A stretch of DNA of 64,000 nt, taken from positions 42,259 through 106,258 of the IMG/VR virus record IMGVR_UViG_2576861193_000004; one strand, written 5' to 3'. The stretch's first letter is position 1, and every line of letters starts with the position of its first letter. Origin of the DNA: a virus (lineage: Duplodnaviria > Heunggongvirae > Uroviricota > Caudoviricetes). The position numbers and the translations under genes were made by a program. The notes under the pieces are model-generated. The model searched no databases. It saw only the letters and a list, made by a program, of their open reading frames with translations, and was not told where the DNA came from. Of the stretch, positions 11,154 to 50,597 are shown in pieces.

Positions 11154-12029
11154 TTAAATTTTTACATTGGTCAGTGCAGCGATAGCCTTATCGTGCTTAT
11201 TCGCCAGAGAGCAGTACCACTTCACACGGGTACGTACTGCGTCTTTGTTCTGTACAGTACCAATGTTTTCAACAACGATACCTGCGTTGTCGCCGCCATA
11301 CAGACCAGTAACGCCGTTCTCTTCTGACAGATGCAGGCAGTAGATGCTTGCTTTGCCAGAATCGGTCGGGATGAAGTCGTTGATGATGAACGGAACGCCG
11401 TTATGACACAGCATCGGACGACCGAAGTTCTCCATCATGATTTCAGACGGACCTACGTTTACTGTACGCAGCAGCGCACGGTAAGCACGCAGGTGCTCTG
11501 AACGCATCATGATGCAGTCAGCACCAAGATCTTTCACCGCATCGACCAGTTCGTCGAACATAGAGAAAGTCATAGATGCACCGGCGATATCGATCTTCTG
11601 ATCTGCGTGCATCAGGCGTGGAATGCCGTCAAACGCCTTGTTGTTGGAGCTGGAGTCACCCAAAATCAGGTTGCGACGGAACGCACGAGCCAGACCTTTA
11701 ACTTTCTGACGAACCTGAATAGCCAACTGGTTGTTGGTGTCGGCCATAGTGGTCGCCAGGAATTTATCAACGTCTACGTCACCAGCCAGAATACGCAGTT
11801 TCGCAACGCATTCTTCGAAGGTTGCTGCACCTTCAGGGATGGTGTCGTTAACGTCGATGAAGGTAGCTTCACTCAGCGTTTTTTCACGGTTGTACAGATA
11901 TGCCTTTGAATTAATTTTCATAAAAGGCAGGATGGCAAACAGGTCATCGCGATCGATGATAGTTTCGATCACACCCTGTTCAAGTTCGTTGTTAGACAGC
12001 TTTTCAGCTTCTTCACGCAGTAATGGCAT
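11154..12029 (-). CDS. major capsid protein (HK97 fold)
   Basis: 291 aa, position after scaffold and before decoration protein, composition typical of HK97-fold capsid proteins. Confidence 0.8.
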   Translation of the reverse strand: MPLLREEAEKLSNNELEQGVIETIIDRDDLFAILPFMKINSKAYLYNREKTLSEATFIDVNDTIPEGAATFEECVAKLRILAGDVDVDKFLATTMADTNNQLAIQVRQKVKGLARAFRRNLILGDSSSNNKAFDGIPRLMHADQKIDIAGASMTFSMFDELVDAVKDLGADCIMMRSEHLRAYRALLRTVNVGPSEIMMENFGRPMLCHNGVPFIINDFIPTDSGKASIYCLHLSEENGVTGLYGGDNAGIVVENIGTVQNKDAVRTRVKWYCSLANKHDKAIAALTNVKI

Positions 12030-12054
12030 CTATCAATTCCCTTTGATTTAGATG

Positions 12055-12942
12055 TTACTTAAGTCCAATTTTCCCCAGACCGGAGGCCAACTTATCCATA
12101 GTCGACTTGTTCTTCGGTTGGGATATTGTGTAGGTCGATTTGGAATGTGAGCCTACACCCTGCTTGGCTTCGCTACGCATCAATGCGTCAGCTTCCGGAT
12201 CTGCCCGCACAATGCGTTCAATCGCGGATTCAAACGGCAACGGCTTACCTTCACCGTCAACCAGAACAGCTCGTTCTTTGTGACCTGCCGGTTTGTCATA
12301 ACCCACTACGCTACCGTCTTCACCCACTTCAAAATGAGAACCGTAGATCACGCGGGCTTTTGCCGGGGTCATCAGAACTTTGTCACGTAGGAAGAGAGAG
12401 TTACTGAAGGAAGCGCCCACGGTCATCTCGACTAATTGAGATTTCAGTGATGCGTTTTCACTTTCCAGTGCTGCATAACGTTCGTCACGCTGTGCCAGCT
12501 CTGCCTGGTGTGCTTCGATCATCTGTTTTTTAACAGCATCGAACTCACCACGACGCTCCAGTTCAGCTTGCTCCGCCTCACGACGTGCGTTTTCTGCGGC
12601 CTGTTCAGCTTCTAAAAGCTGGCGAGCACGAGCCGGATCGATATCACCGTACTGAGCAAGCTGATCGGCCAATGTGCGCTCTTTCTCTTTGCGCTTCATG
12701 TTCTCCTTCAGCAGTTCAGCACCAGCTTTCTTGGTTTTACGAAGTTCGGCCAGTAACTCTTCCTGAGTCATGCCAGCGTATTCGTCATCGCCCTTCGGCT
12801 GCTCTTTTTGTTCACCCTGTTTGTCAGGATCTTGTGTACTCTGCTCATTATCAGCAGCTACACCGCCAGCGCCTCCACGCTCATGCGCTTCAGCAACATC
12901 CATCAGACCACGACGGGCCAAAAGCATTTGCCACAGATTCAT
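12055..12942 (-). CDS. head scaffolding protein
   Basis: 295 aa, highly charged helical repeats (AEQAAENARREAEQAELERR, ELAQRDERYAALESENASLKSQL) between portal and capsid genes. Confidence 0.55.
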   Translation of the reverse strand: MNLWQMLLARRGLMDVAEAHERGGAGGVAADNEQSTQDPDKQGEQKEQPKGDDEYAGMTQEELLAELRKTKKAGAELLKENMKRKEKERTLADQLAQYGDIDPARARQLLEAEQAAENARREAEQAELERRGEFDAVKKQMIEAHQAELAQRDERYAALESENASLKSQLVEMTVGASFSNSLFLRDKVLMTPAKARVIYGSHFEVGEDGSVVGYDKPAGHKERAVLVDGEGKPLPFESAIERIVRADPEADALMRSEAKQGVGSHSKSTYTISQPKNKSTMDKLASGLGKIGLK

Positions 12943-12963
12943 AAAAATTCCTTTTGTTACTTA

Positions 12964-14538
12964 TCACTCGTTCTCTTGAGTAGATGAGTCCCCATTCCCT
13001 CGGGGTTGATCTTGCCCGCTTTCTTGGGCCGCACCACGATCATAAGTAAGTACTGACTTATTTTCAAGGGTATTTAGATCATTTTTTGGAGGAAAATTCA
13101 AGAGATCTTTATCAAATTCCTTTTTCATCGCCTCAGTAATGTTCGGGAAAATCTTCTCAATAAGCATTTCCATCTGGTGACGACGTACAGAGTCCGGTGC
13201 CTGAAGTAATGACAGTTTCTCGGCAACAGAAAATTCATCAGTAAGGCCACGAATATCGAAACTTTCTGGATACGCAATTAAAGAGTGGTCTTCGTCCAGA
13301 TCTACCCCCATCCATTTCGCAACCAGTAGCATGATTTGGCGTTCAGCCCTTTCCAGACGCTCTGCTTTTGTGACAAGCAAGCTATTTACACGCTGGAAGT
13401 CATACATTTTTGCGGCACCAGATGAATTATCGATTCCCTGTGCGTTGTCCTGCTTCGTTCGCTCACCAGCTACACCAACTGAATGGTAGATTTCGTTAAT
13501 CACCGTCTTAATCGTAGTGATGATCATCTGAGCTTGTTTCGGGTCTGGTGACAGATAAAACGGCTGGTTTCCACCTTCAGAATCGTAGGTGAAGACTCGC
13601 TTTGTGCCCATTTCAAGCACTTTAGTGTGGTTTTCATCACCAGGTAAAAGCGACTGTACCGGTATAGCCAACTGGCTAAATGTCTGATCCTGAATAATGG
13701 CATCAAGGTTTGACAGATAGTTTGCAACCGCACGATCAAGATAAGCAATATCATCGATCAACGATGGGCTGAAATACGGTGATTCACTTTCTCCAATACA
13801 ATCAACAGGAAACACAGGAACTACGCCGAGATTATGCGCGCCGCTGTCCTCTAAAATAACTTTTGCCTGACGACGACCTGCTCCACCAGCCCCCTTCTTC
13901 ACTTCCTCACGGAACAGATACCACTCGTTTTGTGTCCACAGACGATAACGTTGGTATTCCTGACCTGTAGAAGTAAAAGGATCTGCGTCATCGCGAGCGA
14001 CTTCCACAATTAACGCCCATAACATATTCCCGTCGTCGTCCCATGCCACATCCAGCATTTGCTGAGGTGAAATCCAGTAGGCGTAGGCGCGAGCATCTTT
14101 CTTTTTCTCGTCAGCTACTGACTCAACATCACCACTCATCGTGCTATCGACAACAACCCATATGCGACCGTAAATAGACGACTGCAAATCAATAGCGGCC
14201 ATAAATGAGTCAATAGAGGCATTCTGGCGAGTCGCACGTTTCCAGAAATTGCGGATCTGCTCTGGTGCCTCTTCGATATTTCTATGAATGTCTTCTTTAA
14301 AGAGATATTTGTTGATGAGGTTTACCACCTCACGAGTGTGGTTGAAGCGATAAGCACGCTCAACTCGCTCCTTAAACTCCTGATCTCCCTCTTTAAAGTA
14401 ACGAAAGATATTGTCTGTAAACCAACCACGCCCGCCAGCGTAAGTGCTGGCGAGGAAGTCCCAATGTTCTTTTTTCTTTTCGTATTCCGGGTGGCGTCGC
14501 GCCACCAGATCCTTAATTTGTTTGTCGTTCAATTCCAT
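12964..14538 (-). CDS. portal protein
   Basis: 524 aa ORF directly downstream of large terminase; size and synteny. Confidence 0.8.
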   Translation of the reverse strand: MELNDKQIKDLVARRHPEYEKKKEHWDFLASTYAGGRGWFTDNIFRYFKEGDQEFKERVERAYRFNHTREVVNLINKYLFKEDIHRNIEEAPEQIRNFWKRATRQNASIDSFMAAIDLQSSIYGRIWVVVDSTMSGDVESVADEKKKDARAYAYWISPQQMLDVAWDDDGNMLWALIVEVARDDADPFTSTGQEYQRYRLWTQNEWYLFREEVKKGAGGAGRRQAKVILEDSGAHNLGVVPVFPVDCIGESESPYFSPSLIDDIAYLDRAVANYLSNLDAIIQDQTFSQLAIPVQSLLPGDENHTKVLEMGTKRVFTYDSEGGNQPFYLSPDPKQAQMIITTIKTVINEIYHSVGVAGERTKQDNAQGIDNSSGAAKMYDFQRVNSLLVTKAERLERAERQIMLLVAKWMGVDLDEDHSLIAYPESFDIRGLTDEFSVAEKLSLLQAPDSVRRHQMEMLIEKIFPNITEAMKKEFDKDLLNFPPKNDLNTLENKSVLTYDRGAAQESGQDQPRGNGDSSTQENE

Positions 14539-14550
14539 TTGAATAACCTT

Positions 14551-14570
14551 AGATAATTACTTACCTATCT
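14551..14570. promoter_or_regulatory. motif-2 palindrome
   Basis: agataattacttacctatct between TerL and portal. Confidence 0.45.
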
Positions 14571-15821
14571 AGAACCACCAAGAATAACACGGTTTTTGAC
14601 TGGATACCTACGATGTACTGGATAGCCCAATGCGTCTGCACTATGCTCAATGCCACCTGTCTTATCCATATCTCGTGTTCCAGGCTTGTAGATGACTTTT
14701 TCCAATGAATCAATCAAATGCTTGCACTTCGGATCGATATACAGCCGGATATCTCCAGATGCGGTCATCAGCATTCGGTTAACAGCATTAACACGATCCG
14801 CAATTGGCGGGTGCTTTTTCGAATAATCGACACGTAAGAATCCCTTCTCTTTGAATATGTCGACGTCAGACTCCCCGCGAGCATGTTGGCGATAAGCACC
14901 TGCCGGATCTGGAAATACCGTTATCTGTGATTTCCAGCGCCAGAAGCGTCTCTCAAGCTCATCACAAACCTCTGCCGTGTTAGAGGAAAAGAGCACCAAT
15001 TCATCAATTGCCCATAGCTCACCATTTGGCTGAGGTTGCAAAATTACTGAAGACATCGGGTCAATGTTGAAGTCCTGCCCTACCCATATAGGCAACCGAG
15101 GGTTGAACTGAAGCGGTTTTACATGCACGTTACGATCGAACGGGTAGTAAACGCGCCCGGACATGTTCTCAAAGCTCGCCAGGTACTCCTGAGCGAACGA
15201 TTTCGGGTCCATATCGTTCTTAGCAGCTTCAATTTCCGCCGTAGGCACAAACGGAGAATCGGCAGTTACAAACTGCCAGCTCTTCCACTGTCCCTTTCTT
15301 TGCAGCTCTACGTTCTGGCCTATAGTCCACAGTTTGTGAAATTCCGAGAAGCCTTTTGGCGTACCAATGATCAGTGCACCGCCGCGTGTCGATGAAAGAG
15401 TAGGTCGTAACACCTTGTACCAGGTGTCAGCCTTCATATCCTGAAATTCATCAAGCACTACAAAATGCAACGCTACGCCGCGCAGAGTGTCAGGCTTATC
15501 AGCACCTTTGAGGGCGATCTCCGAACCGTTCTTCAACACGATTGTCATCGTGGTGTCGTTCTTTTTCCTAACCCACTTACGAGGCAGAACTTCCTGTAGA
15601 TCGTCCCACAAAATCTGGCGAGCCATCTGGTAAGTAGGAGCGACATACCAGACCCTTTGCTTTTTTTCCTTTGCCGCCGCACGAATAATAGTGGAGATCG
15701 ACAACCGGGATTTTCCCCAGCGTCGACCAGCACAAACAACTTTAAATCGATGCGGAGACTGGAAGACTTTCATCTGTCCAGAATGCAGTTGCACAAGACT
15801 GAGCGAGGACGGGATTGCCAT
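14565..15821 (-). CDS. terminase large subunit
   Basis: 418 aa; Walker A VVCAGRRWGKS, Walker B-like VVLDEFQD, C-terminal nuclease-like region; start overlaps stop of TerS-like gene. Confidence 0.85.
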   Translation of the reverse strand: MAIPSSLSLVQLHSGQMKVFQSPHRFKVVCAGRRWGKSRLSISTIIRAAAKEKKQRVWYVAPTYQMARQILWDDLQEVLPRKWVRKKNDTTMTIVLKNGSEIALKGADKPDTLRGVALHFVVLDEFQDMKADTWYKVLRPTLSSTRGGALIIGTPKGFSEFHKLWTIGQNVELQRKGQWKSWQFVTADSPFVPTAEIEAAKNDMDPKSFAQEYLASFENMSGRVYYPFDRNVHVKPLQFNPRLPIWVGQDFNIDPMSSVILQPQPNGELWAIDELVLFSSNTAEVCDELERRFWRWKSQITVFPDPAGAYRQHARGESDVDIFKEKGFLRVDYSKKHPPIADRVNAVNRMLMTASGDIRLYIDPKCKHLIDSLEKVIYKPGTRDMDKTGGIEHSADALGYPVHRRYPVKNRVILGGSR

Positions 15822-19905: not shown

Positions 19906-21465
19906 ATGACTGTTCGGATTGTATCTAACGCAGTAAATGCACTTATTTCTGGCGCAGATGACAAGGTAAAGCAACTGGTGCAACAGATGTTGAGCTACGA
20001 AGTCGAGACTGGCGACTGGAAGGGCACAAGCACGATGTTCAACTGGAGTAAAAACTCGTTCCCTGCTGGCTTTGCCAAGCCTGTAGCGGCGAACTTGAAC
20101 AAGGCGGGCATCAAATGTGTTCATATCCGCAAAGACAAAGCCCCGGCGCTTGGAAAGCCAAATCCGGCGGTCAACCCATTCCCATACAATCCTGATTATG
20201 CATATCAGGATCAGACTGTGGAAACACTGGTTCGAGAGGGAATGATGATTGCGCAGATCGCTACTGGTGGCGGGAAATCTAATGTTGCCTGCAAAGCAGC
20301 TGCACGTATCGGTCGAATGACATTATTTTTAACAACCCGCTCTGTTCTGATGTTTCAGATGGCCGAAAACTTCCAGAGATCCATCGACTACCGCGCCGAA
20401 AATGGCGAACCGTGGTTAAAAGACCAAAAGGTTGGAGTCATTGGCTCGGGTGAGTTCCAGGTATCACGACATATCAACGTCGCTACAGTTCAAACTCTGG
20501 CAAGTTTCCTTGAAGAACCACCACGCGATGCAACTCCAGATAAGAAGAGCTACCACCTCAAACGTCGGGACTTGGTGAAACGCTTCCTTTCAAGTGTGTC
20601 TCTTCTTATTCTGGAAGAGGCGCATGAGTCTTCAGGCTCTAATTTCTATGACATCGCCAGATTATGTGCGAACGCAGACTATCGCCTGGCGCTTACGGCA
20701 ACGCCGTTCATGAAGGATTCTACGGAAGCCAACATGCGTCTGATGGCAGTGGCCGGGCGAATTGAAATAAAAGTCACGGAAAAGTATCTGATTGATAGAG
20801 GCATTCTGGCAAAGCCATACTTCCTTTATCATAAAGTTGCCTACAAGCCGGACGAGGCCAGAATCAAGGCAGAACTTGCCAACAAACACCTCAATTTTAG
20901 AGTAGGTATGAGCACTGCCTACCAAAAGGCTTATCAGTTGGGGATCGTGTATAATTTGGGACGTAATGAGGCCATTGTTCGCGAAGCATTGCTCTATAAG
21001 CAACATTCTCTCAATTGTATGACTCTGGTTCGTCTTAAACGCCACGGGCAAATCCTGATGGAAATGATGAAAGAGTCCGGCCTTAGAGTTGACTTCATTT
21101 ATGGGGAATCGAACCAGTCGACAAGGCAAGCAAAGCTGAACAGTTTAGCGTCTGGCGACATAGATGTTTTAATAGGCTCGACTATTCTGGATGTCGGTGT
21201 TGATGTGCCAAACGTTGGTGCGGTCATTCTTGCTGGTGGTGGGAAAGCAGAAGTTGAAATGAGACAACGTGTCGGTCGTGGCTTACGAGCCAAGAAGAAT
21301 CAGGCAAACGTGTGTTTTGTCACTGATTTCATTGACATTAGCAACAAATACCTGTTGTCTCACTCTTATGAGCGAAAACACATCATCGACACCACACCTG
21401 GCTTTGCAGAAGGTGTATTGCCTGTTGATGGCGCATTCGATTTTGGAGTTCTGAAACGAGATTAG
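19906..21465 (+). CDS. SF2 DEAD/DEAH-box DNA helicase
   Basis: 519 aa; Walker A ATGGGKS, DEAH-like LEEAHE, TATP motif, QRVGRGLR motif VI; RBS aggaaagagg upstream. Confidence 0.75.
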   Translation: MTVRIVSNAVNALISGADDKVKQLVQQMLSYEVETGDWKGTSTMFNWSKNSFPAGFAKPVAANLNKAGIKCVHIRKDKAPALGKPNPAVNPFPYNPDYAYQDQTVETLVREGMMIAQIATGGGKSNVACKAAARIGRMTLFLTTRSVLMFQMAENFQRSIDYRAENGEPWLKDQKVGVIGSGEFQVSRHINVATVQTLASFLEEPPRDATPDKKSYHLKRRDLVKRFLSSVSLLILEEAHESSGSNFYDIARLCANADYRLALTATPFMKDSTEANMRLMAVAGRIEIKVTEKYLIDRGILAKPYFLYHKVAYKPDEARIKAELANKHLNFRVGMSTAYQKAYQLGIVYNLGRNEAIVREALLYKQHSLNCMTLVRLKRHGQILMEMMKESGLRVDFIYGESNQSTRQAKLNSLASGDIDVLIGSTILDVGVDVPNVGAVILAGGGKAEVEMRQRVGRGLRAKKNQANVCFVTDFIDISNKYLLSHSYERKHIIDTTPGFAEGVLPVDGAFDFGVLKRD

Positions 21466-27835: not shown

Positions 27836-28147
27836 TCAGGCTATTGCCATCACTGATGCTCTCTGAATCTCTTGCTGGGCCACGCGGTTAACTTCCATCA
27901 AAGCCAGTTCGAGCTGATGTTCCGGCCACATTCTTTGAAATGCCACCCAGCCTTTTCCACGCTGGCGACGAACATTCATTACATAACGAGTAAAGGTGTT
28001 TTTATCGAAAGACACCGCTGTTTCACGGAACAGACGAATAGAGGTTCCATTGGCAACGATGTCCAGCAAAGTTAATTGAGCAACCAGCGCAGGCTTCTCT
28101 TTTCTCTTCTGGTCTTTGTCCAGACCAAGAACCAATGATTTTTTCAT
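27836..28147 (-). CDS. hypothetical basic protein
   Basis: Start set at MKKSLVLGL; motif-1 palindrome immediately upstream. Confidence 0.3.
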   Translation of the reverse strand: MKKSLVLGLDKDQKRKEKPALVAQLTLLDIVANGTSIRLFRETAVSFDKNTFTRYVMNVRRQRGKGWVAFQRMWPEHQLELALMEVNRVAQQEIQRASVMAIA

Positions 28148-31597: not shown

Positions 31598-33631
31598 TTA
31601 CTTAACCTGGTGGCCTGGTTTAGCACCAGCATCCGGGCTTAACAGGAAGATATCTTTCCCGCCGGGGCCAGCAGCCATCACCATGCCTTCGGAGATACCG
31701 AAGCGCATTTTACGCGGAGCCAGGTTAGCCACCATAATGGTGTGACGACCAATCAGTGCCTGTGGGTCTGGATAAGCAGAACGGATGCCTGAGAAGACAT
31801 TACGCTTTTCACCACCGAGATCCAGTGTCAGACGCAGCAGTTTGTCAGAACCTTCGACAAACTCCGCGTTTTCAATCAGCGCCACACGCAGGTCAACTTT
31901 GGCGAAGTCGTCAAAGGTGATGGTTTCCTGAATCGGGTCGTCAGCCAGTGGGCCAGTTACCGGTGCAGCTGTGGCTTTCACTTCTTCTTTGGATGCTTCC
32001 ACCAGTGCTTCCACCTGTTTCATATCGATACGGTTATACAGTGCCTTGAACGGATTCACTTTATGGCCCAGCAGCGGTTGCTGGATACCATCCCAGGTCA
32101 GTTCTGTATTCAGGAATGCTTCTGCACGTTCAGTCAGTTTCGGCAGTACCGGTTTCAGGTACGTCATCAGCACGCGGAACAGGTTAATGCCCATAGAGCA
32201 AATCGCCTGCAGGTCGGCATCGCGGCCTTCCTGCTTCGCCACCACCCACGGAGCCTGTTCATCAACATAGCGGTTAGCCAGGTCAGCCAGTGACATGATT
32301 TCACGGATAGCTTTGCCAAATTCGCGGCTTTCCCACGCTTCACCAATCACTTCAGCGGCATCAGTGAAGGTTTTGTACAGTTGCGGGTCAGCCAGTTCGC
32401 TTGCCAGCACGCCGTCAAAACGTTTGTTGATAAAACCTGCATTACGGGAGGCCAGGTTAACCACTTTGTTCACGATATCGGCATTCACGCGCTGAACAAA
32501 ATCTTCCAGGTTGAGATCGATATCATCAATGCGCGAAGAGAGTTTCGCAGTGTAGTAGTAACGCAGGCTGTCGGCGTCAAAATGATTCAGCCAGGTGCTG
32601 GCTTTAATAAAGGTGCCGCGAGACTTGGACATCTTCGCGCCGTTCACCGTCACATAGCCGTGAACAAACAGGTTGGTCGGCTTGCGGAAGTTGCTGCCTT
32701 CCAGCATGGCAGGCCAGAACAGGCTGTGGAAGTAAACGATATCTTTACCGATGAAGTGGTACAGCTCGGCGGTGGAGTCTTTCTTCCAGTATTCGTCGAA
32801 GCTGGTAGTGTCGCCGCGTTTGTCGCACAGATTCTTGAAGGAACCCATGTAGCCAATCGGCGCGTCCAGCCAGACGTAGAAATATTTGCCCGGTGCGTTC
32901 GGAATTTCAAAACCGAAGTACGGCGCATCGCGGGAGATATCCCACTGTTGCAGGCCAGATTCAAACCACTCCTGCATTTTGTTTGCCACCTGCTCCTGCA
33001 ACGCACCGCTGCGGGTCCATGCCTGCAACATTTCGCTGAAAGAGGGCAGATCAAAGAAGAAGTGTTCAGAATCACGCATTACCGGCGTAGCGCCAGAAAC
33101 CACCGATTTCGGCTCGATCAATTCAGTCGGGCTATATGTTGCGCCGCAGACTTCACAGTTATCGCCGTATTGATCTGGCGCTTTACATTTAGGACAGGTG
33201 CCTTTTACAAAACGGTCCGGCAGGAACATGCCTTTTTCCGGGTCGTACAACTGAGAGATAGTGCGGTTTTTAATAAAACCGTTCTCTTTCAGGCGAGTAT
33301 AGATAAGCTCAGACAACTGACGGTTCTCTTCGCTGTGCGTCGAGTGATAGTTGTCATAGCTGATGTTAAAGCCTGCGAAATCAGTCTGGTGTTCCTGACT
33401 CATTTCGCCAATCATCTGCTCCGGTGTGATACCAAGCTGCTGTGCTTTCAGCATGATCGGCGTACCGTGGGCATCGTCGGCACAGATGAAATTAACCTCG
33501 TGGCCGCGCATTCGCTGGTAACGAACCCAGACATCAGCCTGGATGTGCTCCAGCATATGGCCGAGGTGGATTGAGCCGTTAGCGTACGGCAGCGCGCACG
33601 TCACCAGAATTTTCTTCGCGACTTGGGTCAT
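31598..33631 (-). CDS. metG: methionine--tRNA ligase
   Basis: Translation from [26 protein letters not shown] (HIGH motif) through KMSKS to C-terminal tRNA-binding domain ending [10 protein letters not shown]; 677 aa from ATG 33631; ORF track N-terminal extension rejected. Confidence 0.95.
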
Positions 33632-33788
33632 AGTAGGCATTACTTCTTTGTAGTGAAAAGGGGCTTGATAGTAACAAAATGGCCTTATGTCTGCCATGTG
33701 ATAACAGCATTTCTCATAAATGATTAAATGTCGTAGCTGGAGTACACTACAAGGCGACAATTGCGCAAATTAAAATAAAGGAGACGGG

Positions 33789-34889
33789 ATGAGCGAGTCC
33801 AAATCGCCGGATGCCCTGAGAGCAATGGTAGCCGGTACGCTGGCTAATTTTCAGCACCCAACCCTGAAACACAACCTGACTACGCTTAAAGCGTTACACC
33901 ATGTTGCGTTGATGGATGACACACTGCATGTCGAACTAATCATGCCTTTCGTGTGGAATAAGCCTTTTGAAGACCTGAAAGAGCAATGTAGTGGTGATCT
34001 GCTCCGTATCACTGGCGCAAAGGCTATTGACTGGAAGCTGTCGTACAACATTGCCACGCTTAAGCGCGTCAAAAACCAACCAGGCATTAATGGCGTTAAG
34101 AACATTATCGCCGTCAGCTCAGGCAAGGGCGGCGTGGGTAAATCCTCCACGGCGGTAAACCTGGCACTGGCGTTGGCTGCTGAAGGTGCGAAAGTTGGTA
34201 TTTTGGATGCCGATATCTATGGTCCATCAATTCCAACCATGCTGGGCGCGGAAAACCAACGTCCAACCTCACCTGACGGTACTCACATGGCACCTATCAT
34301 GTCTCATGGCCTGGCAACCAACTCTATTGGTTATCTGGTCACCGACGACAATGCAATGGTGTGGCGTGGACCGATGGCCAGCAAGGCGCTGATGCAGATG
34401 TTGCAGGAAACTCTATGGCCTGATCTGGACTATCTCGTTCTCGATATGCCGCCGGGCACTGGTGATATTCAGTTGACGCTGGCGCAGAACATTCCTGTAA
34501 CTGGTGCGGTTGTGGTAACTACGCCGCAAGACATCGCGCTGATCGATGCGAAGAAAGGCATTGTGATGTTCGAAAAAGTCGAAGTGCCGGTACTGGGTAT
34601 CGTCGAAAACATGAGTGTGCATATTTGCAGTAACTGCGGTCATCACGAGCCAATTTTTGGCACCGGTGGCGCACAGAAACTGGCCGAGAAATACAACACG
34701 CAGTTGTTAGGCCAAATGCCACTTCATATCTCTCTTCGTGAAGATCTGGATAACGGAACACCAACCGTTATTAGTCGTCCAGATAGCGAATTTACGGCTA
34801 TTTATCGTGACCTCGCAGATCGCGTTGCTGCCCAAATGTATTGGCAAGGTGAAGTAATACCTGGCGAAATCGCATTCCGCGCAGTGTGA
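33789..34889 (+). CDS. apbC: Fe-S cluster carrier ATPase ApbC/Mrp
   Basis: 366 aa; Walker A SGKGGVGKS, CxxC-type motif CSNCGH; divergent from metG with a 157-bp intergenic region as in E. coli. Confidence 0.9.
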   Translation: MSESKSPDALRAMVAGTLANFQHPTLKHNLTTLKALHHVALMDDTLHVELIMPFVWNKPFEDLKEQCSGDLLRITGAKAIDWKLSYNIATLKRVKNQPGINGVKNIIAVSSGKGGVGKSSTAVNLALALAAEGAKVGILDADIYGPSIPTMLGAENQRPTSPDGTHMAPIMSHGLATNSIGYLVTDDNAMVWRGPMASKALMQMLQETLWPDLDYLVLDMPPGTGDIQLTLAQNIPVTGAVVVTTPQDIALIDAKKGIVMFEKVEVPVLGIVENMSVHICSNCGHHEPIFGTGGAQKLAEKYNTQLLGQMPLHISLREDLDNGTPTVISRPDSEFTAIYRDLADRVAAQMYWQGEVIPGEIAFRAV

Positions 34890-34890
34890 T

Positions 34891-34920
34891 AAAAAGGCGG
34901 TGCATTGCACCGCCTAATCA
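34891..34920. terminator. bidirectional hairpin terminator between apbC and the umuD'-like gene
   Basis: aaaaa-ggcggtgca-t-tgcaccgcc; A-run on one side gives a U-run for the minus-strand transcript. Confidence 0.5.
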
Positions 34921-34926
34921 GTTCTC

Positions 34927-35316
34927 CTACATCACGGGACAATCATCAAACTCGCCACTTCTTGCGTCGTTGATAATGTGAGTGATCACACCAAACACGG
35001 CATTGCTGCCCGTGCATCCATCGTCATCCTTTGGCAATGCTTCCTTCTTACCGGTTCTTAAATCCTCCAGATGCTGACGTGGGTACTTCCGGTATCTTTT
35101 TACGCGATATTCCCCATCCAGAGCGCATACAAGCAGAGAACCATCAACCGGGGTAAGTGAGGAATCGACCACCAGCAATGCACCCTGTAATATTCCCTCA
35201 CGATGATGACTATCAGCTGCCCTCATGAAGTAGGTCGCTGAAGGATGTCTAATTATCTGCTGATCAAGAGAAATACGGCTCTCAGCATAATCCGCCGCAG
35301 GAGAAGGGAAGCCCAT
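34927..35316 (-). CDS. umuD: UmuD'-like peptidase S24 protein (P1 HumD-like; encoded without the UmuD N-terminal arm)
   Basis: 129 aa starting MGFPSPAADY, which matches UmuD just after its autocleavage region; LexA box 20 bp upstream. Confidence 0.75.
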   Translation of the reverse strand: MGFPSPAADYAESRISLDQQIIRHPSATYFMRAADSHHREGILQGALLVVDSSLTPVDGSLLVCALDGEYRVKRYRKYPRQHLEDLRTGKKEALPKDDDGCTGSNAVFGVITHIINDARSGEFDDCPVM

Positions 35317-35334
35317 AGCGTTTTCACCTCAGAG

Positions 35335-35354
35335 TACTGTTTATCCATACAGTA
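35335..35354 (-). promoter_or_regulatory. LexA (SOS) box
   Basis: Gene-strand TACTGTATGGATAAACAGTA = CTGT-N8-ACAG consensus, followed by GAGG RBS and ATG of the umuD'-like gene. Confidence 0.7.
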
Positions 35355-35414
35355 TACATTAAAGATGCTTGAAGTGTGCAATAGCGCGATGCTTTGCGCT
35401 CGCCTGGTGGCGCG

Positions 35415-35678
35415 TTATTTTTTGGCTATATCTTCTTTCTGATATACCGGATCGTTTCCTTTTGGCAGCAGGAGGCTTAACTGCCGGTAGTGCCGTAGCC
35501 GTTCCATGAAATAGGTGCGCAGGTTCTCAGGTTGCTCACGGGCTACCTGTTCCGCTATGACGGGTATGTTCAATCGCTCTTTGTAGGCAACCCCCCTGGC
35601 AGCCAGGTCAACGTTAACTTTATTCCTTTCTTCCTGGCTTTTAGCTGCTATGTTCCATTCGTTCATATTAAATCCCAT
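35415..35678 (-). CDS. holE: DNA polymerase III theta subunit homolog (P1 Hot-like)
   Basis: [42 protein letters not shown] closely parallels E. coli theta [42 protein letters not shown]; true start may be the internal MNEWNIAAK. Confidence 0.65.
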
Positions 35679-36134
35679 CCAGAATAATTGAATAACGGCT
35701 ATTATTTAGTCGCCGCAATATCTTCAAAGTTTTTTTTCTCACCCCATTGCTTTTTGCGCACAGCTTATCTGGCTTGCGGTGCGCGAAATGTAAATTCGCC
35801 TTCAGAGTTATCCACAAAGTTATGCACTTGCAACGGGGCCATTTTCCTCATACCGTGTTTGCACACACAGGAAATGGATATTTTATTAATTGAATTTTAT
35901 TAAATAATAATGATAAGGAGAAAATTTGAGATGTAATCATGACATTAATAGATAGGGCCTGCATTACAGGCCCCAACTACATCAAGGAATTCACAGTTCC
36001 CTGATTTTTATACCGAAAACATGTGCCGTAAGTTCACGTTAACGACTTTCTTTCACCGAATCCAACTATATAGAGGTTGGGTTTCTACGTCAACGTGAGA
36101 GCACGCAGCTTTACATTAGACGAGGATTACCCTG

Positions 36135-36272
36135 ATGATTGTATTTTTTCAGTTTCTAAGTGCATTTTTAAATGCGCCTGTTCTTAGCCAAGTGCTGGCG
36201 ATTGTCTTCATCGTGGTTCTGATATGGTTTTTCAAGTCAGTGATAAACAGAGGCGTGCGCTGGCTTATTTAA
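36135..36272 (+). CDS. small hydrophobic peptide (45 aa), possible membrane toxin-like protein
   Basis: MIVFFQFLSAFLNAPVLSQVLAIVFIVVLIWFFKSVINRGVRWLI; RBS gagga 8 nt upstream; below ORF-track size cutoff. Confidence 0.3.
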   Translation: MIVFFQFLSAFLNAPVLSQVLAIVFIVVLIWFFKSVINRGVRWLI

Positions 36273-36804
36273 TGTCGCGATGAGATATTAATTCCCTTGC
36301 TGTTTAACCATTTTTTGTGTGTGCTGGTGAGCGTGTGAAGGCTCAATTTGTTGCCCACCAGTATTTACTATTTCTAAGCTCCACAGTGTCACTTCCGCAC
36401 AAACAACTTAGCGCGGAATCAGTATTCGGCCCAAGATGTAAAAAGCCAACCTGCGTTATGGTTCGCATTTCCAAATAGTGTTCTGAACGCCCTTGCCGGG
36501 CGCGAGATGTAGATTAGCGTTCACGCTATGCTGATATACGGCTTTAGACTTTCCATATTGCTGACAGGCTTTATCTGCGGTTTTTTGCAGGCTATCCAGC
36601 CCATACCAGCCATCAGACTGGATGCTTACCTTTTCACCGTCATTGTATTGCACCATCGCGCACCCAAACATGGCTATCATCGCACCGACAATACCACTTT
36701 TCCAAAAAGCTCTAATTAGGTCATTCGTTACCTAATGTCCGAACTGCTAAAGCATCCAAGTTGCTGTAGAATCACCGCCAATTACATAAGCCTGAAATAA
36801 GTGG

Positions 36805-38367
36805 ATGAAAATGACAAGTATTCAACAACGTGCAGAGCTTCATCGTCAAATCTGGCAAATTGCTAACGATGTCAGGGGTTCGGTCGATGGATGGGATTTT
36901 AAGCAATACGTTCTGGGCGCACTTTTCTACCGTTTTATCAGCGAAAATTTTTCCAGTTATATTGAAGCCGGTGATGACAGTATCTGTTATGCGAAACTGG
37001 ATGACAGCGTAATTACTGATGACATTAAAGACGATGCCATCAAAACTAAAGGCTACTTCATCTACCCCAGTCAGCTTTTCTGCAACGTAGCTGCGAAAGC
37101 AAATACTAATGACAGACTGAATGCAGATTTAAACAGCATCTTCGTTGCTATCGAAAGTTCTGCTTACGGTTATCCTTCAGAAGCAGACATCAAAGGTTTG
37201 TTTGCTGATTTCGATACCACCAGTAACCGCCTGGGTAACACCGTTAAAGATAAAAATGCCCGCCTGGCTGCGGTTCTGAAAGGGGTTGAAGGGTTAAAAC
37301 TTGGTGACTTCAACGAACATCAGATTGACCTGTTCGGTGATGCCTATGAGTTCCTGATTTCTAACTATGCGGCAAATGCCGGTAAGTCAGGCGGTGAGTT
37401 CTTTACACCGCAGCACGTCTCCAGGCTGATTGCACAACTGGCAATGCATGGCCAGACCCACGTTAACAAAATCTACGACCCGGCAGCGGGTTCCGGCTCA
37501 CTGTTGTTGCAGGCGAAAAAACAGTTTGATAACCACATCATCGAAGAAGGCTTTTTCGGTCAGGAAATCAACCATACGACCTATAACCTGGCGCGTATGA
37601 ACATGTTTTTGCACAATATCAACTACGACAAGTTTGATATCAAGCTGGGTAATACACTGACTGAGCCGCACTTCAGAGATGAAAAACCGTTTGACGCCAT
37701 CGTATCTAACCCACCGTATTCGGTGAAATGGATTGGCAGCGATGACCCGACGCTGATTAACGATGAGCGTTTTGCCCCGGCTGGCGTTCTGGCCCCCAAA
37801 TCCAAAGCTGACTTTGCGTTTGTATTACATGCACTGAACTATCTTTCTGCCAAAGGTCGTGCTGCGATTGTCTGCTTCCCGGGTATTTTTTACCGTGGCG
37901 GCGCGGAGCAGAAAATCCGTCAGTATCTGGTCGATAATAACTATGTCGAAACCGTGATTTCACTGGCACCGAACCTGTTCTTTGGCACCACCATTGCAGT
38001 AAACATTCTGGTGCTGTCTAAACATAAAACGGATACCAACGTTCAGTTTATTGACGCCAGCGAACTGTTCAAAAAAGAGACTAACAACAATATCCTGACC
38101 GATGCCCATATCGAACAGATTATGCAGGTATTTGCCAGCAAGGAAGATGTTGCTCATCTGGCGAAATCTGTCACGTTTGAGACCGTTGTCGCGAATGACT
38201 ATAACCTGTCGGTAAGCAGCTATGTGGAAGCGAAAGATACTCGCGAAATTATCGATATCGCTGAGTTGAATGCAGAACTGAAAACCACGGTCAGCAAAAT
38301 CGACCAGTTGCGTAAAGATATTGATGCGATTGTGGCTGAAATTGAAGGCTGCGAGGTGCAGAAATGA
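36805..38367 (+). CDS. hsdM: Type I restriction-modification methyltransferase subunit
   Basis: 520 aa; AdoMet motif [10 protein letters not shown], catalytic NPPY (VSNPPYS); start of next gene overlaps stop by 4 nt. Confidence 0.95.
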
Positions 38368-39599
38368 GCGAGTTGAGTTATCTGGAAAAATTGCTGGATG
38401 GGGTTGAGGTTGAGTGGTTGCCATTGGGGAAACTAGGTGAATTAGTTCGTGGAAATGGATTGCCTAAGTCTGATTTTACCGAATCTGGGGTTCCTGCCAT
38501 ACACTATGGTCAGATATATACTTTTTACGGATTATCTACTGAAACAACAAAGTCATTTGTTTCCCATGAAACGGCGAAGAAGCTTAAAAAGGTTAACTCT
38601 GGTGATGTTGTTATTACTAACACAAGCGAAAATTTTACTGATGTTGGTAAGGCGCTTGTTTATCTAGGTAAAGAGCAAGCTGTTACTGGTGGCCATGCAA
38701 CTATTTTCAAGCCAAATAGCACTATTATTGGGAAATACTTTGCCTATTTCACGCAAACGGATTCTTTTGCAAATGAGAAAAGGAAATACTCCAAGGGAAC
38801 TAAAGTAATTGATGTGTCTGCATCGGATATGGCGAAAATTATTATCCCTATCCCCTGTCCGGAAAATCCCAAAAAATCCCTTGCTATCCAGTCTGAAATC
38901 GTTCGGATTCTGGACAAATTTACTGCACTTACCGCTGAGCTTACCGCTGAGCTTACCATGCGTAAAAAACAGTACAACTACTATCGCGACCAATTGCTGA
39001 GTTTTAAAGAAGGTGAGGTTGAGTGGAAAACTTTGGGAGAAGTGGCTCAATACTCGAAAACAAGAATTAGTTTCGAACTACTTGATGAAAGGAATTATGT
39101 TGGCGTAGATAATCTGCTGCAAAACAGAGCAGGAAAATCATTATCTAATCATGTACCCACATCAGGTAAATTAACGGAGTTTATACCTAACGATATACTG
39201 ATTGGGAATATCCGCCCATATTTGAAAAAAATTTGGCAAGCAGATTGTATCGGTGGAACAAATGGCGATGTATTGGTTATTCGTTGCATAGATAGCTCAA
39301 TAAATACCAGATATCTATATCAGATTTTGGCAGATGACAAATTCTTTGAATACAACATGCAGCATGCTAAAGGAGCAAAAATGCCGCGTGGCAGTAAAGA
39401 GGATATAATGAAATACCCAATCCCTGTACCGCCACTCACCTTGCAAGCTCGCATTGTCGAAATACTCAACAAATTCGATACCCTGACAAACTCCATCACT
39501 GAAGGTCTTCCGCGTGAAATCGAATTACGCCAGAAACAATACGAATACTACCGTGATTTACTGTTCAGTTTCCCAAAACCTGAAACTGTCAGTAATTAA
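38364..39599 (+). CDS. hsdS: Type I restriction-modification specificity subunit
   Basis: 411 aa; conserved N-terminal, central ([42 protein letters not shown]) and C-terminal ([35 protein letters not shown]) regions separating two variable target-recognition domains. Confidence 0.9.
38931..38954 (+). repeat. tandem 12-bp repeat (ACCGCTGAGCTT x2) encoding TAEL-TAEL in the HsdS central spacer
   Basis: accgctgagctt accgctgagctt read directly in sequence. Confidence 0.8.
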
Positions 39600-39720
39600 T
39601 TGACCATTGCTACCGACCGGGCCACCTTAACACCCGGTCTGTATATAGACTATTTTTTACGCGCCGGAAGTCACTCTTAACGCCCTTCCGGCCCTTGCCA
39701 GGCGGCACAAAGGATGCGCT

Positions 39721-42700
39721 ATGACTCATCAAACACACACCATTGCTGAATCCAATAACTTTATCGTCCTTGATAAGTACATCAAAGCTGAGCAAACAAG
39801 CGACAGCTACCAGAGCGAATCGGACCTGGAACGTGAACTGATTCAGGACCTGCGGAATCAGGGTTATGAATTTATTTCCGTAAAATCACAGTCGGCAATG
39901 CTGTCCAATGTTCGGGAACAGCTTCAGAGCCTCAATGGTGTGATGTTTAATGACAGCGAGTGGCGGCGCTTCACGGAGCAGTATCTGGACAATCCCAGCG
40001 ATGGTATTCTGGATAAGACCCGTAAAATCCATATCGACTATATCTGCGACTTTATTTTTGACGACGGGCGTCTTGAGAACATCTATCTGATCGATAAAAA
40101 GAATCTCATGCGCAACAAAGTGCAGATTATCCAGCAGTTTGAACAGGCAGGTTCTCATGCTAACCGTTATGACGTCACGATCCTGGTTAATGGCTTGCCT
40201 CTGGTGCAAATCGAACTGAAAAAGCGCGGCGTGGCGATTCGTGAGGCTTTCAACCAGATACATCGTTACAGCAAAGAGAGTTTTAACAGCGAAAATTCCC
40301 TGTTTAAGTATCTGCAACTGTTTGTCATTTCTAACGGCACCGATACCCGTTATTTTGCCAACACCACAAAGCGCGATAAAAACAGTTTTGACTTCACCAT
40401 GAACTGGGCGAAATCAGACAACACGCTGATTAAAGACCTCAAAGACTTTACCGCTACCTTTTTCCAGAAACATACCCTGCTTAATGTTCTGGTGAACTAC
40501 AGCGTGTTTGACAGTAGTCAGACGCTACTGGTGATGCGACCGTACCAGATTGCAGCTACCGAACGGATCTTATGGAAAATCAACAGCTCCTATAAAGCGA
40601 AAAACTGGTCTAACCCCGAAAGCGGTGGCTTTATCTGGCACACCACTGGTTCCGGTAAAACACTGACCAGCTTTAAAGCCGCGCGTCTGGCAACTGAACT
40701 GGACTTTATTGATAAAGTCTTCTTCGTGGTCGACAGGAAAGACCTCGATTACCAGACCATGAAGGAATATCAGCGTTTTTCGCCAGACAGCGTCAACGGC
40801 TCGGAAAATACCGCAGGTCTTAAACGAAATCTGGATAAGGACGATAACAAAATTATCGTCACCACTATTCAGAAACTTAATAACCTGATGAAAGCAGAAA
40901 GCGACCTGCCTGTATACAATCAGCAAGTGGTGTTTATATTTGATGAATGCCACCGCAGCCAGTTTGGAGAAGCGCAGAAAAACCTGAAGAAGAAATTCAA
41001 ACGCTATTATCAGTTTGGTTTTACCGGCACCCCTATTTTCCCGGAAAATGCCTTAGGCTCAGAAACGACCGCCAGCGTATTTGGTCGTGAATTGCATTCG
41101 TATGTAATTACCGATGCGATTCGTGACGAAAAAGTGCTCAAATTCAAGGTGGACTACAACGATGTGCGGCCACAGTTTAAGTCTTTAGAGACAGAAACTG
41201 ACGAGAAAAAACTGAGTGCGGCTGAAAATCAGCAGGCGTTTCTTCATCCCATGCGTATTCAGGAAATCACGCAATATATCCTGAACAACTTCCGCCAGAA
41301 GACTCACCGTACTTACCCCGGCTCCAAAGGTTTTAATGCCATGCTGGCAGTAAGCAGCGTGGATGCCGCGAAAGCCTATTACGCGACGTTTAAACGGTTA
41401 CAAGAGGAAGCCGCTAATAAATCTGCTACCTATAAACCACTGCGTGTTGCGACAATCTTCTCCTTTGCCGCCAATGAAGAACAAAATGCCATTGGTGAAA
41501 TTTCCGATGAAACTTTTGATACCAGCGCAATGGACAGCAGTGCTAAAGAGTTTCTTGACGCTGCAATTCGTGAGTATAACAGCTATTTTAAAACTAACTT
41601 CAGCACCGACAGTAACGGTTTTCAGAACTACTATCGTGATTTAGCCCAACGGGTTAAAAATCAGGATATCGATCTGTTAATTGTCGTTGGGATGTTTTTA
41701 ACCGGCTTCGACGCTCCAACATTGAACACGCTATTCGTCGATAAAAACTTGCGTTTTCACGGCCTGATGCAGGCATTCTCCCGTACCAACCGCATTTATG
41801 ACGCTACTAAAACCTTCGGTAACATCGTCACTTTTCGGGATCTGGAACGCTCAACCATTGATGCCATAACGCTGTTTGGTGATAAAAATACTAAAAATGT
41901 GGTGTTAGAAAAGAGTTATGCAGAGTATATGGAAGGCTTTACTGATGCTGCTACAGGTGAAGCTAAACGCGGCTTTATGGCAGTAGTTTCAGAACTGGAA
42001 CAACGGTTCCCTGACCCTGCCAGTATTGAAAGTGAAAAAGAGAAGAAAGACTTCGTTAAACTGTTTGGCGAATACCTGCGTGCCGAGAACATCCTGCAAA
42101 ACTATGATGAATTTGCCACGCTGAAAGCCCTGCAACAAATCGATCTTAGCGATCCTGTTGCGGTAGAAAAATTCAAAGAAGAACATTATGTGGATGATGA
42201 AAAGTTCGCTGAATTGCAAACGATTCGTCTCCCTGCTGAACGCAAGATTCAGGATTATCGTTCTGCCTATAACGATATTCGTGACTGGCAGCGCCGCGAG
42301 AAAGAAGCTGATAAAAAAGAAAAATCAACCACTGACTGGGATGACGTGGTTTTTGAGGTCGATTTGCTGAAGTCTCAGGAAATAAACCTGGATTATATCC
42401 TTGGACTGATTTTCGAACACAACAGACAAAATAAAGGCAAGGGCGAAATGATCGAAGAGGTCAAACGCTTAATTCGTTCAAGCCTGGGGAACCGGGCGAA
42501 AGAGGGCCTGGTGGTCGATTTTATTCAGCAAACGAACCTGGATGATTTACCAGACAAAGCCAGCATCATTGACGCGTTCTTTACCTTTGCTCAACACGAA
42601 CAGCTACGTGAAGCAGAAGCGTTGATTAAAGAAGAAAATCTCAATGAAGAGGCGGCGAAACGCTATATTCGCACGTCTTTAAAACGCGAATACGCCACCG

Positions 42701-42837
42701 AAAATGGCACAGAATTAAACGAGACATTACCAAAACTTAGTCCGTTAAACCCGCAATATAAAACGAAAAAACAGACGGTTTTCCAGAAAATCGTCACGTT
42801 TATTGAAAAGTTCAAAGGAGTAGGTGGGCAGATATAG
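39721..42837 (+). CDS. hsdR: Type I restriction enzyme R subunit
   Basis: 1038 aa; helicase motifs [12 protein letters not shown] ([11 protein letters not shown]), endonuclease-type N-terminal region; 120-bp gap after hsdS with no intervening gene. Confidence 0.95.
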
Positions 42838-42895
42838 TGTATTAATCTGAACCAGATCTGGCAGATATCTGTGCAAATTGCAGATAGCTGTCAGA

Positions 42896-43306
42896 TCAAG
42901 CCATCGTAGGGATGTCTGTATCCACTTTGAACTCCGGTACACCAACGAACTCTTTAACCTTCATCTGATAGCCGGTTCTGTCAGTTTTGATGACTTCCTG
43001 CTTGCCCTCGATAAATTGCTCACGCCACTCGTCGCGACGGGAAGCTGGCATGATCAGCAAAACGTTAGTCATATCCGTGACCTTCCTCCAGTACTCGGCC
43101 CAAATATTCTGTTTCACCCATTCCAGATCGACTTTATCCAGCCAAGCTCGATTCAAACGTGAGCGATCTTCATCTGGTCGATGGTTTAGTCTCAGCAGGC
43201 GATTAATCATGTTGTGGCGTTCGTCGCCATAAACGAAGTCGTGTACCTGATACATGAAGGCGATCTCTTTCTCGCACTCGGCCACGATTTCGTGGATGAC
43301 ATTCAT
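42896..43306 (-). CDS. hypothetical protein
   Basis: 136 aa ORF; no family recognised. Confidence 0.3.
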   Translation of the reverse strand: MNVIHEIVAECEKEIAFMYQVHDFVYGDERHNMINRLLRLNHRPDEDRSRLNRAWLDKVDLEWVKQNIWAEYWRKVTDMTNVLLIMPASRRDEWREQFIEGKQEVIKTDRTGYQMKVKEFVGVPEFKVDTDIPTMA

Positions 43307-43378
43307 TTCCTGCCGATAGTCGATAGTCGATAGCAGCGTTTGAGTTGGGATCGTCGATGATGGAAAGGGCTGTATTCA

Positions 43379-50042: not shown

Positions 50043-50597
50043 TCAGGCGCTTTCGAATGGGAGTTTGAAGAAGCCGTATTTCTCTCGGGCTTTGAAGAAA
50101 CACTGCATCATCAGATCAGTATCGTAGAGAGCACTGTGGGCTTTCTCACGGTCGTAAGTGAACCCAAGTGAGAATGCCAGCTCTTCCAGGCGTGGGCGCT
50201 TCCCATCCTCGGTAGCCCACAGGGAAAATAGAGTGTCAACCAGAGGGATTTCTGGCAATTTCACTCCATAGCTTCCGAACTCGTGGCGAATGAACGGAAG
50301 GTCAAAAGCCTCCCCGTTATGGGCGACTAACGCGCTACATGCCCCCATATATGCAGCAATCTTACCTGCGTGATCAGCCAACAGCGGTTCAGCAGCCAGT
50401 TCTTCCAGAGAGATACCATGTACAGCCTGCGCCTTCGGATCGATGCTACGACGCGGGTTGAAGCGCATCTCAAGGCTGTCAATGCGCTTCTGGGTTTCCA
50501 GTTCATAACGAGATATCGCGATTTCGATAATTTTGTGGCCGGATGTGAAGTCCAGCCCCGTGGACTCAATATCGACGCCACCGACAATCGTGGTCAT
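50043..50597 (-). CDS. DnaQ-like 3'-5' exonuclease (DEDDh)
   Basis: Exo I GVDIESTGLD, Exo II AHNGEAFDLPF, Exo III HSALYDTD. Confidence 0.7.
   Translation of the reverse strand: MTTIVGGVDIESTGLDFTSGHKIIEIAISRYELETQKRIDSLEMRFNPRRSIDPKAQAVHGISLEELAAEPLLADHAGKIAAYMGACSALVAHNGEAFDLPFIRHEFGSYGVKLPEIPLVDTLFSLWATEDGKRPRLEELAFSLGFTYDREKAHSALYDTDLMMQCFFKAREKYGFFKLPFESA

Follow-up and report, generated by a model that had tools for sequence, protein, structure and literature searches.

Two neighboring genes on the minus strand of the window (the whole stretch of 64 kb that was analyzed) were identified as homologs of humD and hot of bacteriophage P1. The first encodes an analog of UmuD', the second a homolog of the theta subunit of DNA polymerase III. 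Downstream of humD lies apbC in convergent orientation; it ends at position 34889 and is separated from the humD stop codon by a gap of 37 bp, which agrees with the initial annotation that apbC adjoins the UmuD-like gene. On the other side, hot is followed by non-coding DNA and by a cluster of restriction-modification genes. The features of the locus and its surroundings are as follows:

34885-34915, minus strand: intrinsic terminator predicted for humD, with a G+C-rich hairpin of 9 bp and a subsequent UUUUUAU
34927-35316, minus strand: humD, 129-aa HumD-family protein, UmuD' analog without the N-terminal 24 residues
35325-35330, minus strand: Shine-Dalgarno motif GAGGTG, spaced by 8 nt from the ATG of humD
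35335-35354: predicted LexA (SOS) box, TACTGTATGGATAAACAGTA on the gene strand and TACTGTTTATCCATACAGTA on the plus strand, an exact TACTGT-N8-ACAGTA
35351-35380, minus strand: promoter-like site, TGCACA-18-TATACT or TTGCAC-19-TATACT, found by a consensus scan with 9/12 matches, a candidate only
35415-35678, minus strand: hot, Pol III theta homolog, maximal open reading frame of 87 aa
35808-35828, plus strand: DnaA-box pair upstream of hot, TTATCCACA then TTATGCACT
36805-38367, plus strand: hsdM, HsdM of 520 aa, Pfam N6_Mtase
38364-39599, plus strand: hsdS, HsdS of 411 aa, Pfam Methylase_S
39721-42837, plus strand: hsdR, HsdR of 1038 aa, Pfam HSDR_N, SWI2_SNF2 and EcoR124_C
35317-42891: P1-family block with the humD 5'-UTR and operator, hot, upf-like non-coding/small-ORF DNA, and type IC hsdM/S/R
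62118-63173: repA, 83% homologous to the repA at the start of the circular plasmid pAPSLC-111K

HumD and the control region of its gene

The humD product matches the NCBIfam equivalog NF051876 ("HumD family translesion DNA polymerase") over its entire length (residues 1-129 of 129) with 219.8 bits, compared to a cutoff of 120. It also matches the Pfam family Peptidase_S24 (PF00717; 37.9 bits, cutoff 23.3), the PDB structure of UmuD' (1UMU; E value 6.7e-23), and the PHROG family phrog_811. The protein begins with MGFPSPAADY, and its residue 2 corresponds to Gly25 of full-length UmuD (8GMT_B). It has neither the N-terminal arm nor the Cys24-Gly25 cleavage site, and thus the earlier proposal that it starts where UmuD' starts after cleavage was borne out. 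A three-way alignment, with the sequence of UmuD checked against that of MG1655, revealed identities of 91% to P1 HumD and of 44% to E. coli UmuD. Ser36 and Lys73 are located at the positions of the Ser60/Lys97 dyad of UmuD, and the C-terminal strand VFGVITHII aligns with VFGVVIHVV of UmuD. The initial annotation had made its assignment dependent on the dyad region and the C-terminal dimerization elements, and because both are present, the assignment stands. HumD ends with an acidic extension of 10 residues, which is specific for the HumD family and absent from UmuD. P1 HumD shares all of these features: it likewise has 129 aa, begins at the residue that corresponds to Gly25 of UmuD, and contains the Ser/Lys dyad as well as the extension at the C-terminus. 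More generally, UmuD/UmuD' and HolE (theta) of E. coli have the same folds and belong to the same families as HumD and Hot of the window, and further HumD homologs exist in N15, phiKO2, HK140, HK639, and other phages.

At the nucleotide level, the humD gene differs from its P1 counterpart at 57 positions, 46 of which are third codon positions, and 41 codons have only synonymous differences while 11 are non-synonymous, indicating purifying selection. In contrast, it is identical to CYRAN_98 of phage Cyrano at 390 of 390 nt, and therefore the window contains the allele of the SSU5 lineage. A homolog of umuC was found neither in the window (tblastn, E>1) nor in a related complete plasmid with a 99.7% identical region (tblastn, E>=0.5, and annotation).

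The LexA box upstream of humD is the only exact TACTGT-N8-ACAGTA site in the 64-kb window, and none of 100 dinucleotide-preserving shuffles contained any such site. It matches the operator of the E. coli umuDC operon at 17 of 20 positions. The textbook LexA box that had been reported earlier was thus confirmed, but its distance to the humD ATG is 18 nt rather than 20 bp. An alignment of the 5'-UTRs revealed that the box is homologous to the annotated LexA site of P1, where it has the same distance to the gene, and that Cyrano, RCS47, and a P1-like plasmid have boxes as well. The gene has been described as a LexA-regulated SOS gene (PMC9603915). At the level of sequence, humD of the window would likewise be placed under SOS control by its LexA operator. 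The only other CTGT-N8-ACAG site of the window, at 28018, was judged to be a chance occurrence, because its spacer is G+C-rich and the TA flanks are missing.

Several additional signals surround the box. The -10 hexamer of the promoter-like site and the LexA box overlap by 4 nt; the TATACT is retained in all five aligned elements, including P1, RCS47, the P1-like plasmid, and Cyrano, and the TTGCAC is present in the P1-type sequences. The Shine-Dalgarno region is identical in P1, it is the same in RCS47 apart from a spacer to the ATG that is shorter by 1 nt, and it differs in Cyrano. The predicted terminator at the gap between the convergent genes apbC and humD has a folding energy of -21 kcal/mol (z -4.3), and none of 200 shuffles was as good. 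The surroundings of the operator are different in P1, where the LexA box is situated between humD and the divergent gene lxr, and phd-doc follows humD. In the window, the lxr gene (573 bp) is absent and about 35 unrelated bases are found instead, and humD is followed by the terminator and apbC. A neighborhood of humD and hot without lxr is also found in the P1-type phages RCS47 and D6, and in RCS47 hot directly adjoins the operator region of humD, as in the window.

The theta homolog Hot

The initial annotation had stated that the 87-aa protein encoded next to humD aligns with Pol III theta. All comparisons were in agreement with this view. The protein matches the Pfam family DNA_pol3_theta (PF06440) with 107.6 bits (cutoff 34.6), NCBIfam NF008207 with 97.4 bits, which is barely above the cutoff of 97, and phrog_1105 (E value 2.4e-40). 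P1 Hot (PDB 1SE7/2IDO) is matched at 83 of 83 residues from Met5 onwards with about 88% identity (E value 1e-44). E. coli theta (1DU2) is matched with an E value of 4e-18. Like P1 hot, the gene contains two in-frame ATGs, and translation probably starts at the second one at 35666, yielding a product of 83 aa. This shorter form is more likely because a GGATGGG run resembling a ribosome-binding site precedes the ATG, the P1 record contains the alternative start, and the crystallized P1 protein also corresponds to it.

In comparison to P1, hot has 32 nucleotide differences, 21 of them at third codon positions, with 18 codons carrying only synonymous and 11 carrying non-synonymous differences, a pattern that again points to purifying selection. 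The gene is intact in the window. However, the close relative pAPSLC-111K has a premature stop codon (Q to stop, 35483 G>A), and hot is frameshifted in another close relative, p.CT29-P1. Therefore, hot may be dispensable in the SSU5-like background.

The upstream region of hot also resembles that of P1, including the DnaA-box pair and a promoter region of the upfN type. The DnaA-box pair is conserved in P1, whose annotation relates it by homology to a region of E. coli where two DnaA boxes are predicted, and it is also conserved in Cyrano, where it is located upstream of humD. In contrast, the -22 element of P1 late promoters (AAGTTACTT) is matched at only 6 of 9 positions, and a homolog of Lpa is not annotated in the related complete plasmid. 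A scan of the window revealed no LexA box upstream of hot. Between hot and humD no convincing terminator was found on the gene strand; the hairpins there are weak, with a z of -1.9, and are not followed by a U-tract, and the T-tract of this region belongs to the opposite strand.

The host element and the origin of the locus

Genes for the tape measure protein, the capsid, the portal, and the terminase are located in the initial 25 kb of the window. Positions 1-25000 have an identity of 95-97% to CMS-2020a/Cyrano and of 80.7% to the Salmonella phage SSU5 over 66% of the length, which verifies the earlier statement that the structural genes are of a siphovirus type and not those of P1. E. coli plasmids of 108-114 kb are 97-98% identical across much of the length of the window, and 23 circular E. 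coli plasmids of this size contain the humD-hot locus with an identity of at least 99%. By its gene content and its relatives, the host element belongs to the SSU5-like siphovirus phage-plasmids of E. coli and is related to phage Cyrano/pLF82. The presence of repA together with siphovirus genes and plasmid relatives identifies it as a phage-plasmid rather than an integrated prophage. Cyrano (pLF82) is known from a published description (PMC9928086) as a phage-plasmid of the SSU5-like siphovirus type, and genotoxic stress induces it.

The gene order metG-apbC-humD is the same in Cyrano. The metG/apbC pair has a nucleotide identity of 88% to the mrp-metG region of E. coli K-12, and the encoded proteins are 98% (MetG) and 95% (ApbC) identical. 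Judging from this similarity, the pair was captured from a chromosome and now belongs to the cargo of the element, and, as it is carried by the element as well as by Cyrano, apbC does not represent a chromosomal flank.

Cyrano/pLF82, CMS-2020a, and PhiR41_1 share the structural genes and the metG-apbC-humD arrangement with the window, but they contain neither hot nor a type IC restriction-modification system. Instead, they have a 5.85-kb set of ea22/eaa-type genes at this site. In a local blastn comparison the homology to Cyrano ends at 35364 and returns at 42892 inside a DUF4942 gene, which is truncated in the window at the right end of the P1-family block. The left crossover can be located within positions 35286-35319 at the 5'-end of humD, where a stretch of 34 nt is identical in all alleles compared. 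Just upstream of the humD ATG, the sequence GAGGTGAAAACGCT equals that of P1 and is different in Cyrano, marking the switch to a P1-type 5'-UTR.

Positions 35426-42837 are 96% identical to a P1-like plasmid, i.e., plasmid unnamed6 of E. coli ETEC1731 (NZ_CP122822.1; local blastn, hsdS variable regions excepted), and the genes from hot to hsdR have the same order in both. The order on that plasmid is phd-doc, humD, two genes of the lxr side, hot, and hsdMSR. It differs from the window in that humD is of the P1-type allele (85% nucleotide identity), phd-doc lies beside humD, and hsdR is interrupted by IS1203. The C-terminal domain of HsdR matches EcoR124_C (PF12008) with 242 bits and a relative is annotated as "EcoR124 family" in RefSeq; by these domains, hsdM-hsdS-hsdR is a type IC (EcoR124-family) restriction-modification system.

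Taken together, a humD gene identical to that of Cyrano, a block with 96% identity to a P1-like plasmid, and the gap in the Cyrano homology lead to the conclusion that about 7.5 kb of P1-family DNA replaced 5.85 kb of the Cyrano backbone. Based on these comparisons, humD is a resident gene of the SSU5-like lineage, and the operator region, hot, and the type IC restriction-modification genes are derived from the P1-family block. The parallel to the hot and humD pair of P1 that had been drawn before holds, as positions 34928-36329 match P1 with about 82% nucleotide identity at 85.9-88.0 kb, where humD, the LexA site, and hot are annotated. The related idea of a P1-like accessory module in a different virion background needs a revision. 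P1-type genes are indeed combined with an SSU5-type virion, but they did not arrive as one module, because humD is identical to that of Cyrano, in which humD likewise has a LexA box of its own and hot is lacking. The plasmid p.CT29-P1 (H9) was considered as a P1-like donor without lxr, but it proved to be another variant of the SSU5 type, with IS elements in place of metG-apbC.

Proposed roles of HumD and Hot

Identity, anatomy, conservation, and evolutionary origin of the two genes are evident from the comparisons described above. With a probability of about 0.85, we interpret them jointly as accessory DNA-metabolism genes of an SSU5-like phage-plasmid, with a P1-type humD as an SOS unit for a ready-made UmuD' and hot as the gene for a theta homolog. 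The humD gene would be a self-contained SOS unit, comprised of the promoter-like site with the LexA box, the Shine-Dalgarno motif, the coding sequence, and the terminator. In an undamaged cell, the LexA protein of the host would occupy the box and humD would be off. After DNA damage, RecA* would lead to the self-cleavage of LexA, and HumD would be produced. It would already have the form of UmuD' and would not require processing. Because the N-terminal arm and the cleavage site are lacking, no RecA*-dependent activation would be needed, and the slow RecA*-dependent step from UmuD to UmuD' would be skipped. In analogy to P1 HumD, which reportedly substitutes for UmuD' in SOS mutagenesis, the protein would dimerize and join UmuC of the host, and an active translesion polymerase of the Pol V type would thus be available sooner than by the pathway of the host. 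P1 Hot has been reported to bind and stabilize the epsilon subunit of Pol III. By analogy, Hot of the window would bind and stabilize the epsilon proofreading subunit of the host Pol III. The binding of LexA, the partnership with UmuC, and the binding of epsilon are thus all modeled on P1. The experimental studies of the two P1 proteins are those of McLenigan et al. (1999, J Bacteriol 181:7005) and of Chikova & Schaaper (2007, Mutat Res 624:1), both of which are cited in PMC4713147. The hot gene has its own upstream region without a LexA box, and read-through from hot into humD may be possible, as there is no convincing terminator between them.

It is conceivable, but in our view doubtful, that hot is a passenger, which entered this SSU5-like lineage only owing to its position beside the type IC restriction-modification cassette of P1-like plasmids. 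In this case, hot would have no selected role and would not be part of a functional "SOS module" together with humD. In Cyrano and further SSU5-like relatives, apbC-humD is found without hot, and the apbC-humD junction is present in 207 of 5426 complete E. coli genomes versus only 23 records with the full humD-hot-hsd arrangement. In addition, hot through hsdR forms a single block with 96% identity to DNA of a P1-like plasmid, close relatives contain the nonsense and frameshift alleles of hot mentioned above, and a LexA box upstream of hot is missing. However, hot is intact in the window, and 21 of its 32 differences from P1 are at third positions. Furthermore, the adjacency of hot and humD is persistent in P1-type phages (P1, RCS47, and D6), and co-transcription may occur, as no terminator separates the two genes.

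A second alternative, which we regard as unlikely, concerns the role of HumD. It might be mainly a regulator that titrates UmuD/UmuC or modulates RecA filaments and thereby tunes recombination or prophage induction during the SOS response, and not a mutagenic cofactor of Pol V. The absence of umuC from the element and the acidic C-terminal extension of the HumD family, which UmuD does not have, are in line with this possibility, and it is known that UmuD'2C inhibits RecA-mediated recombination. However, the identity of 91% to P1 HumD, the protein reported to replace UmuD' in SOS mutagenesis, and the conservation of the core fold, the dyad, and the dimer strands argue for a cofactor. An origin by chance or decay of the humD and hot reading frames and the LexA box, for which only the short length of the reading frames could be put forward, is hardly conceivable and was rejected, considering that HumD scores far above the cutoff of its curated model (in contrast to 97.4 vs. 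97 for the theta NCBIfam model), substitutions are concentrated at third codon positions, the exact LexA box occurs in 0 of 100 shuffles, and both genes are conserved in hundreds of plasmids.

Two further ideas extend the joint interpretation of humD and hot as accessory DNA-metabolism genes. The first is that Hot might serve a replicase of the element itself by stabilizing a phage proofreader, which would result in a core resembling alpha-epsilon-theta that is assembled from parts of different origin. An exonuclease of the DEDDh type that resembles epsilon and has 184 aa is encoded in the window (50043-50597), and related complete plasmids carry genes for a Pol III alpha (dnaE), a helicase, and a primase of their own. 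Nevertheless, we consider this very unlikely. Better supported is the second idea, that humD, with about 85% nucleotide identity between P1-like and SSU5-like elements, may act as a homology anchor for the movement of a type IC restriction-modification defense cassette between unrelated families of phage-plasmids.

The humD and hot genes of the window represent the already known hot/humD system of P1. The finding is ordinary, because the genes are named in public annotations and are common in E. coli plasmids. In relatives, the RefSeq name of the first gene is "HumD family translesion DNA polymerase" (or "S24 family peptidase"), and that of the second is "DNA polymerase III subunit theta". The very same HumD protein can be found in RefSeq, as a member of the HumD family, and in phage Cyrano, and among the complete E. 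coli assemblies about 700 records match the humD-hot segment. A literature search did not retrieve any papers on humD/hot in SSU5-like phage-plasmids or on a cassette swap from P1 to SSU5. The locus records a clean cassette exchange between P1-like and SSU5-like phage-plasmids, which carried along a restriction system and hot, and this adds a little to what is known about gene flow among phage-plasmids. A LexA-controlled, pre-activated UmuD' encoded by a phage seems to be a stable feature of a common lineage of E. coli phage-plasmids, and it could influence SOS mutagenesis in clinical strains.

Genes carried with hot in the P1-family block

The type IC restriction-modification genes arrived together with hot, the gene for a Pol III theta homolog, within the P1-family block, which also holds two small ORFs between hot and hsdM.

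36805-42837: hsdM/hsdS/hsdR, type IC (EcoR124-family)
36135-36272 (+): 45-aa ORF, strongly hydrophobic, unannotated, MIVFFQFLSAFLNAPVLSQVLAIVFIVVLIWFFKSVINRGVRWLI
36456-36680 (-): 74-aa ORF, phrog_7757 (unknown function), end-to-end match, E 1.7e-51

A DUF4942 gene (42896-43375) was truncated by the insertion of this block with its type IC hsdMSR genes. The sole stretch of the restriction system that diverges from the P1-like plasmid NZ_CP122822.1 is hsdS (about 38418-39464), as is expected for a specificity subunit. The gene hot is intact in the window and broken in some close plasmid relatives, by a Gln-to-stop mutation in pAPSLC-111K, a related complete plasmid (G>A at the equivalent of position 35483), and by a frameshift in the SSU5-type variant p.CT29-P1 (8489-8741 of its record).

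The 45-aa ORF is preceded by a promoter-like TTTACA-18-GATGAT, and its P1 counterpart has equal length and frame, though 31 nt and 18 aa differ. A PHROG match was looked for and none was found; the ORF may specify a small membrane peptide or be toxin-like. The 74-aa ORF is unannotated among the RefSeq relatives inspected.

Replication, nucleotide metabolism and chromosomal cargo

50043-50597 (-): epsilon-like DEDDh 3'-5' exonuclease of the element itself, 184 aa
51734-52210 (-) and neighbours to about 60 kb: nucleotide-metabolism cluster, from positional correspondence with pAPSLC-111K

Among solved structures, the top match of the exonuclease is the N-terminal domain of E. coli epsilon (E 2.8e-11), and pAPSLC-111K encodes dnaE (Pol III alpha), a DnaB-like helicase, a primase, a ligase and a gp32-like SSB (11426-14932 of its record, outside the window). 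The exonuclease and this dnaE together indicate that the theta homolog resides in an element that has an alpha/epsilon-like replicase of its own. The pAPSLC-111K cluster is annotated as dihydrofolate reductase, named trimethoprim-resistant DfrA51, thymidylate synthase, nrdA/nrdB and a RuvC-family protein. The cluster of the window is only about 76-79% identical to it; therefore, the element is itself mosaic, and its dihydrofolate reductase allele is not identical to DfrA51.

The metG-apbC(mrp) genes (31598-34889) are a captured chromosomal locus, divergent as in the native order, with 88% nucleotide identity to E. coli K-12 (MetG 98%, ApbC 95% at the amino acid level). The locus is also kept in the SSU5-like phage-plasmid Cyrano. 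Of 5426 complete E. coli genomes, 207 contain the apbC-humD junction. On the phage-plasmid, metG supplies a second copy of methionyl-tRNA synthetase, and apbC supplies an Fe-S carrier.

DnaA boxes and a second LexA box

35808-35828: DnaA-box pair 5' of hot, TTATCCACA and TTATGCACT

The pair is conserved in P1 and is found upstream of humD in Cyrano, which suggests DnaA-linked control of the surrounding region. Another perfect LexA box (TACTGTATAAGTAAACAGTA), the second, is found outside the window at 20626-20645 of the pAPSLC-111K record, about 27 bp 5' of a tyrosine recombinase/integrase gene. This box suggests that a further gene of the SSU5-like phage-plasmid family is SOS-controlled.
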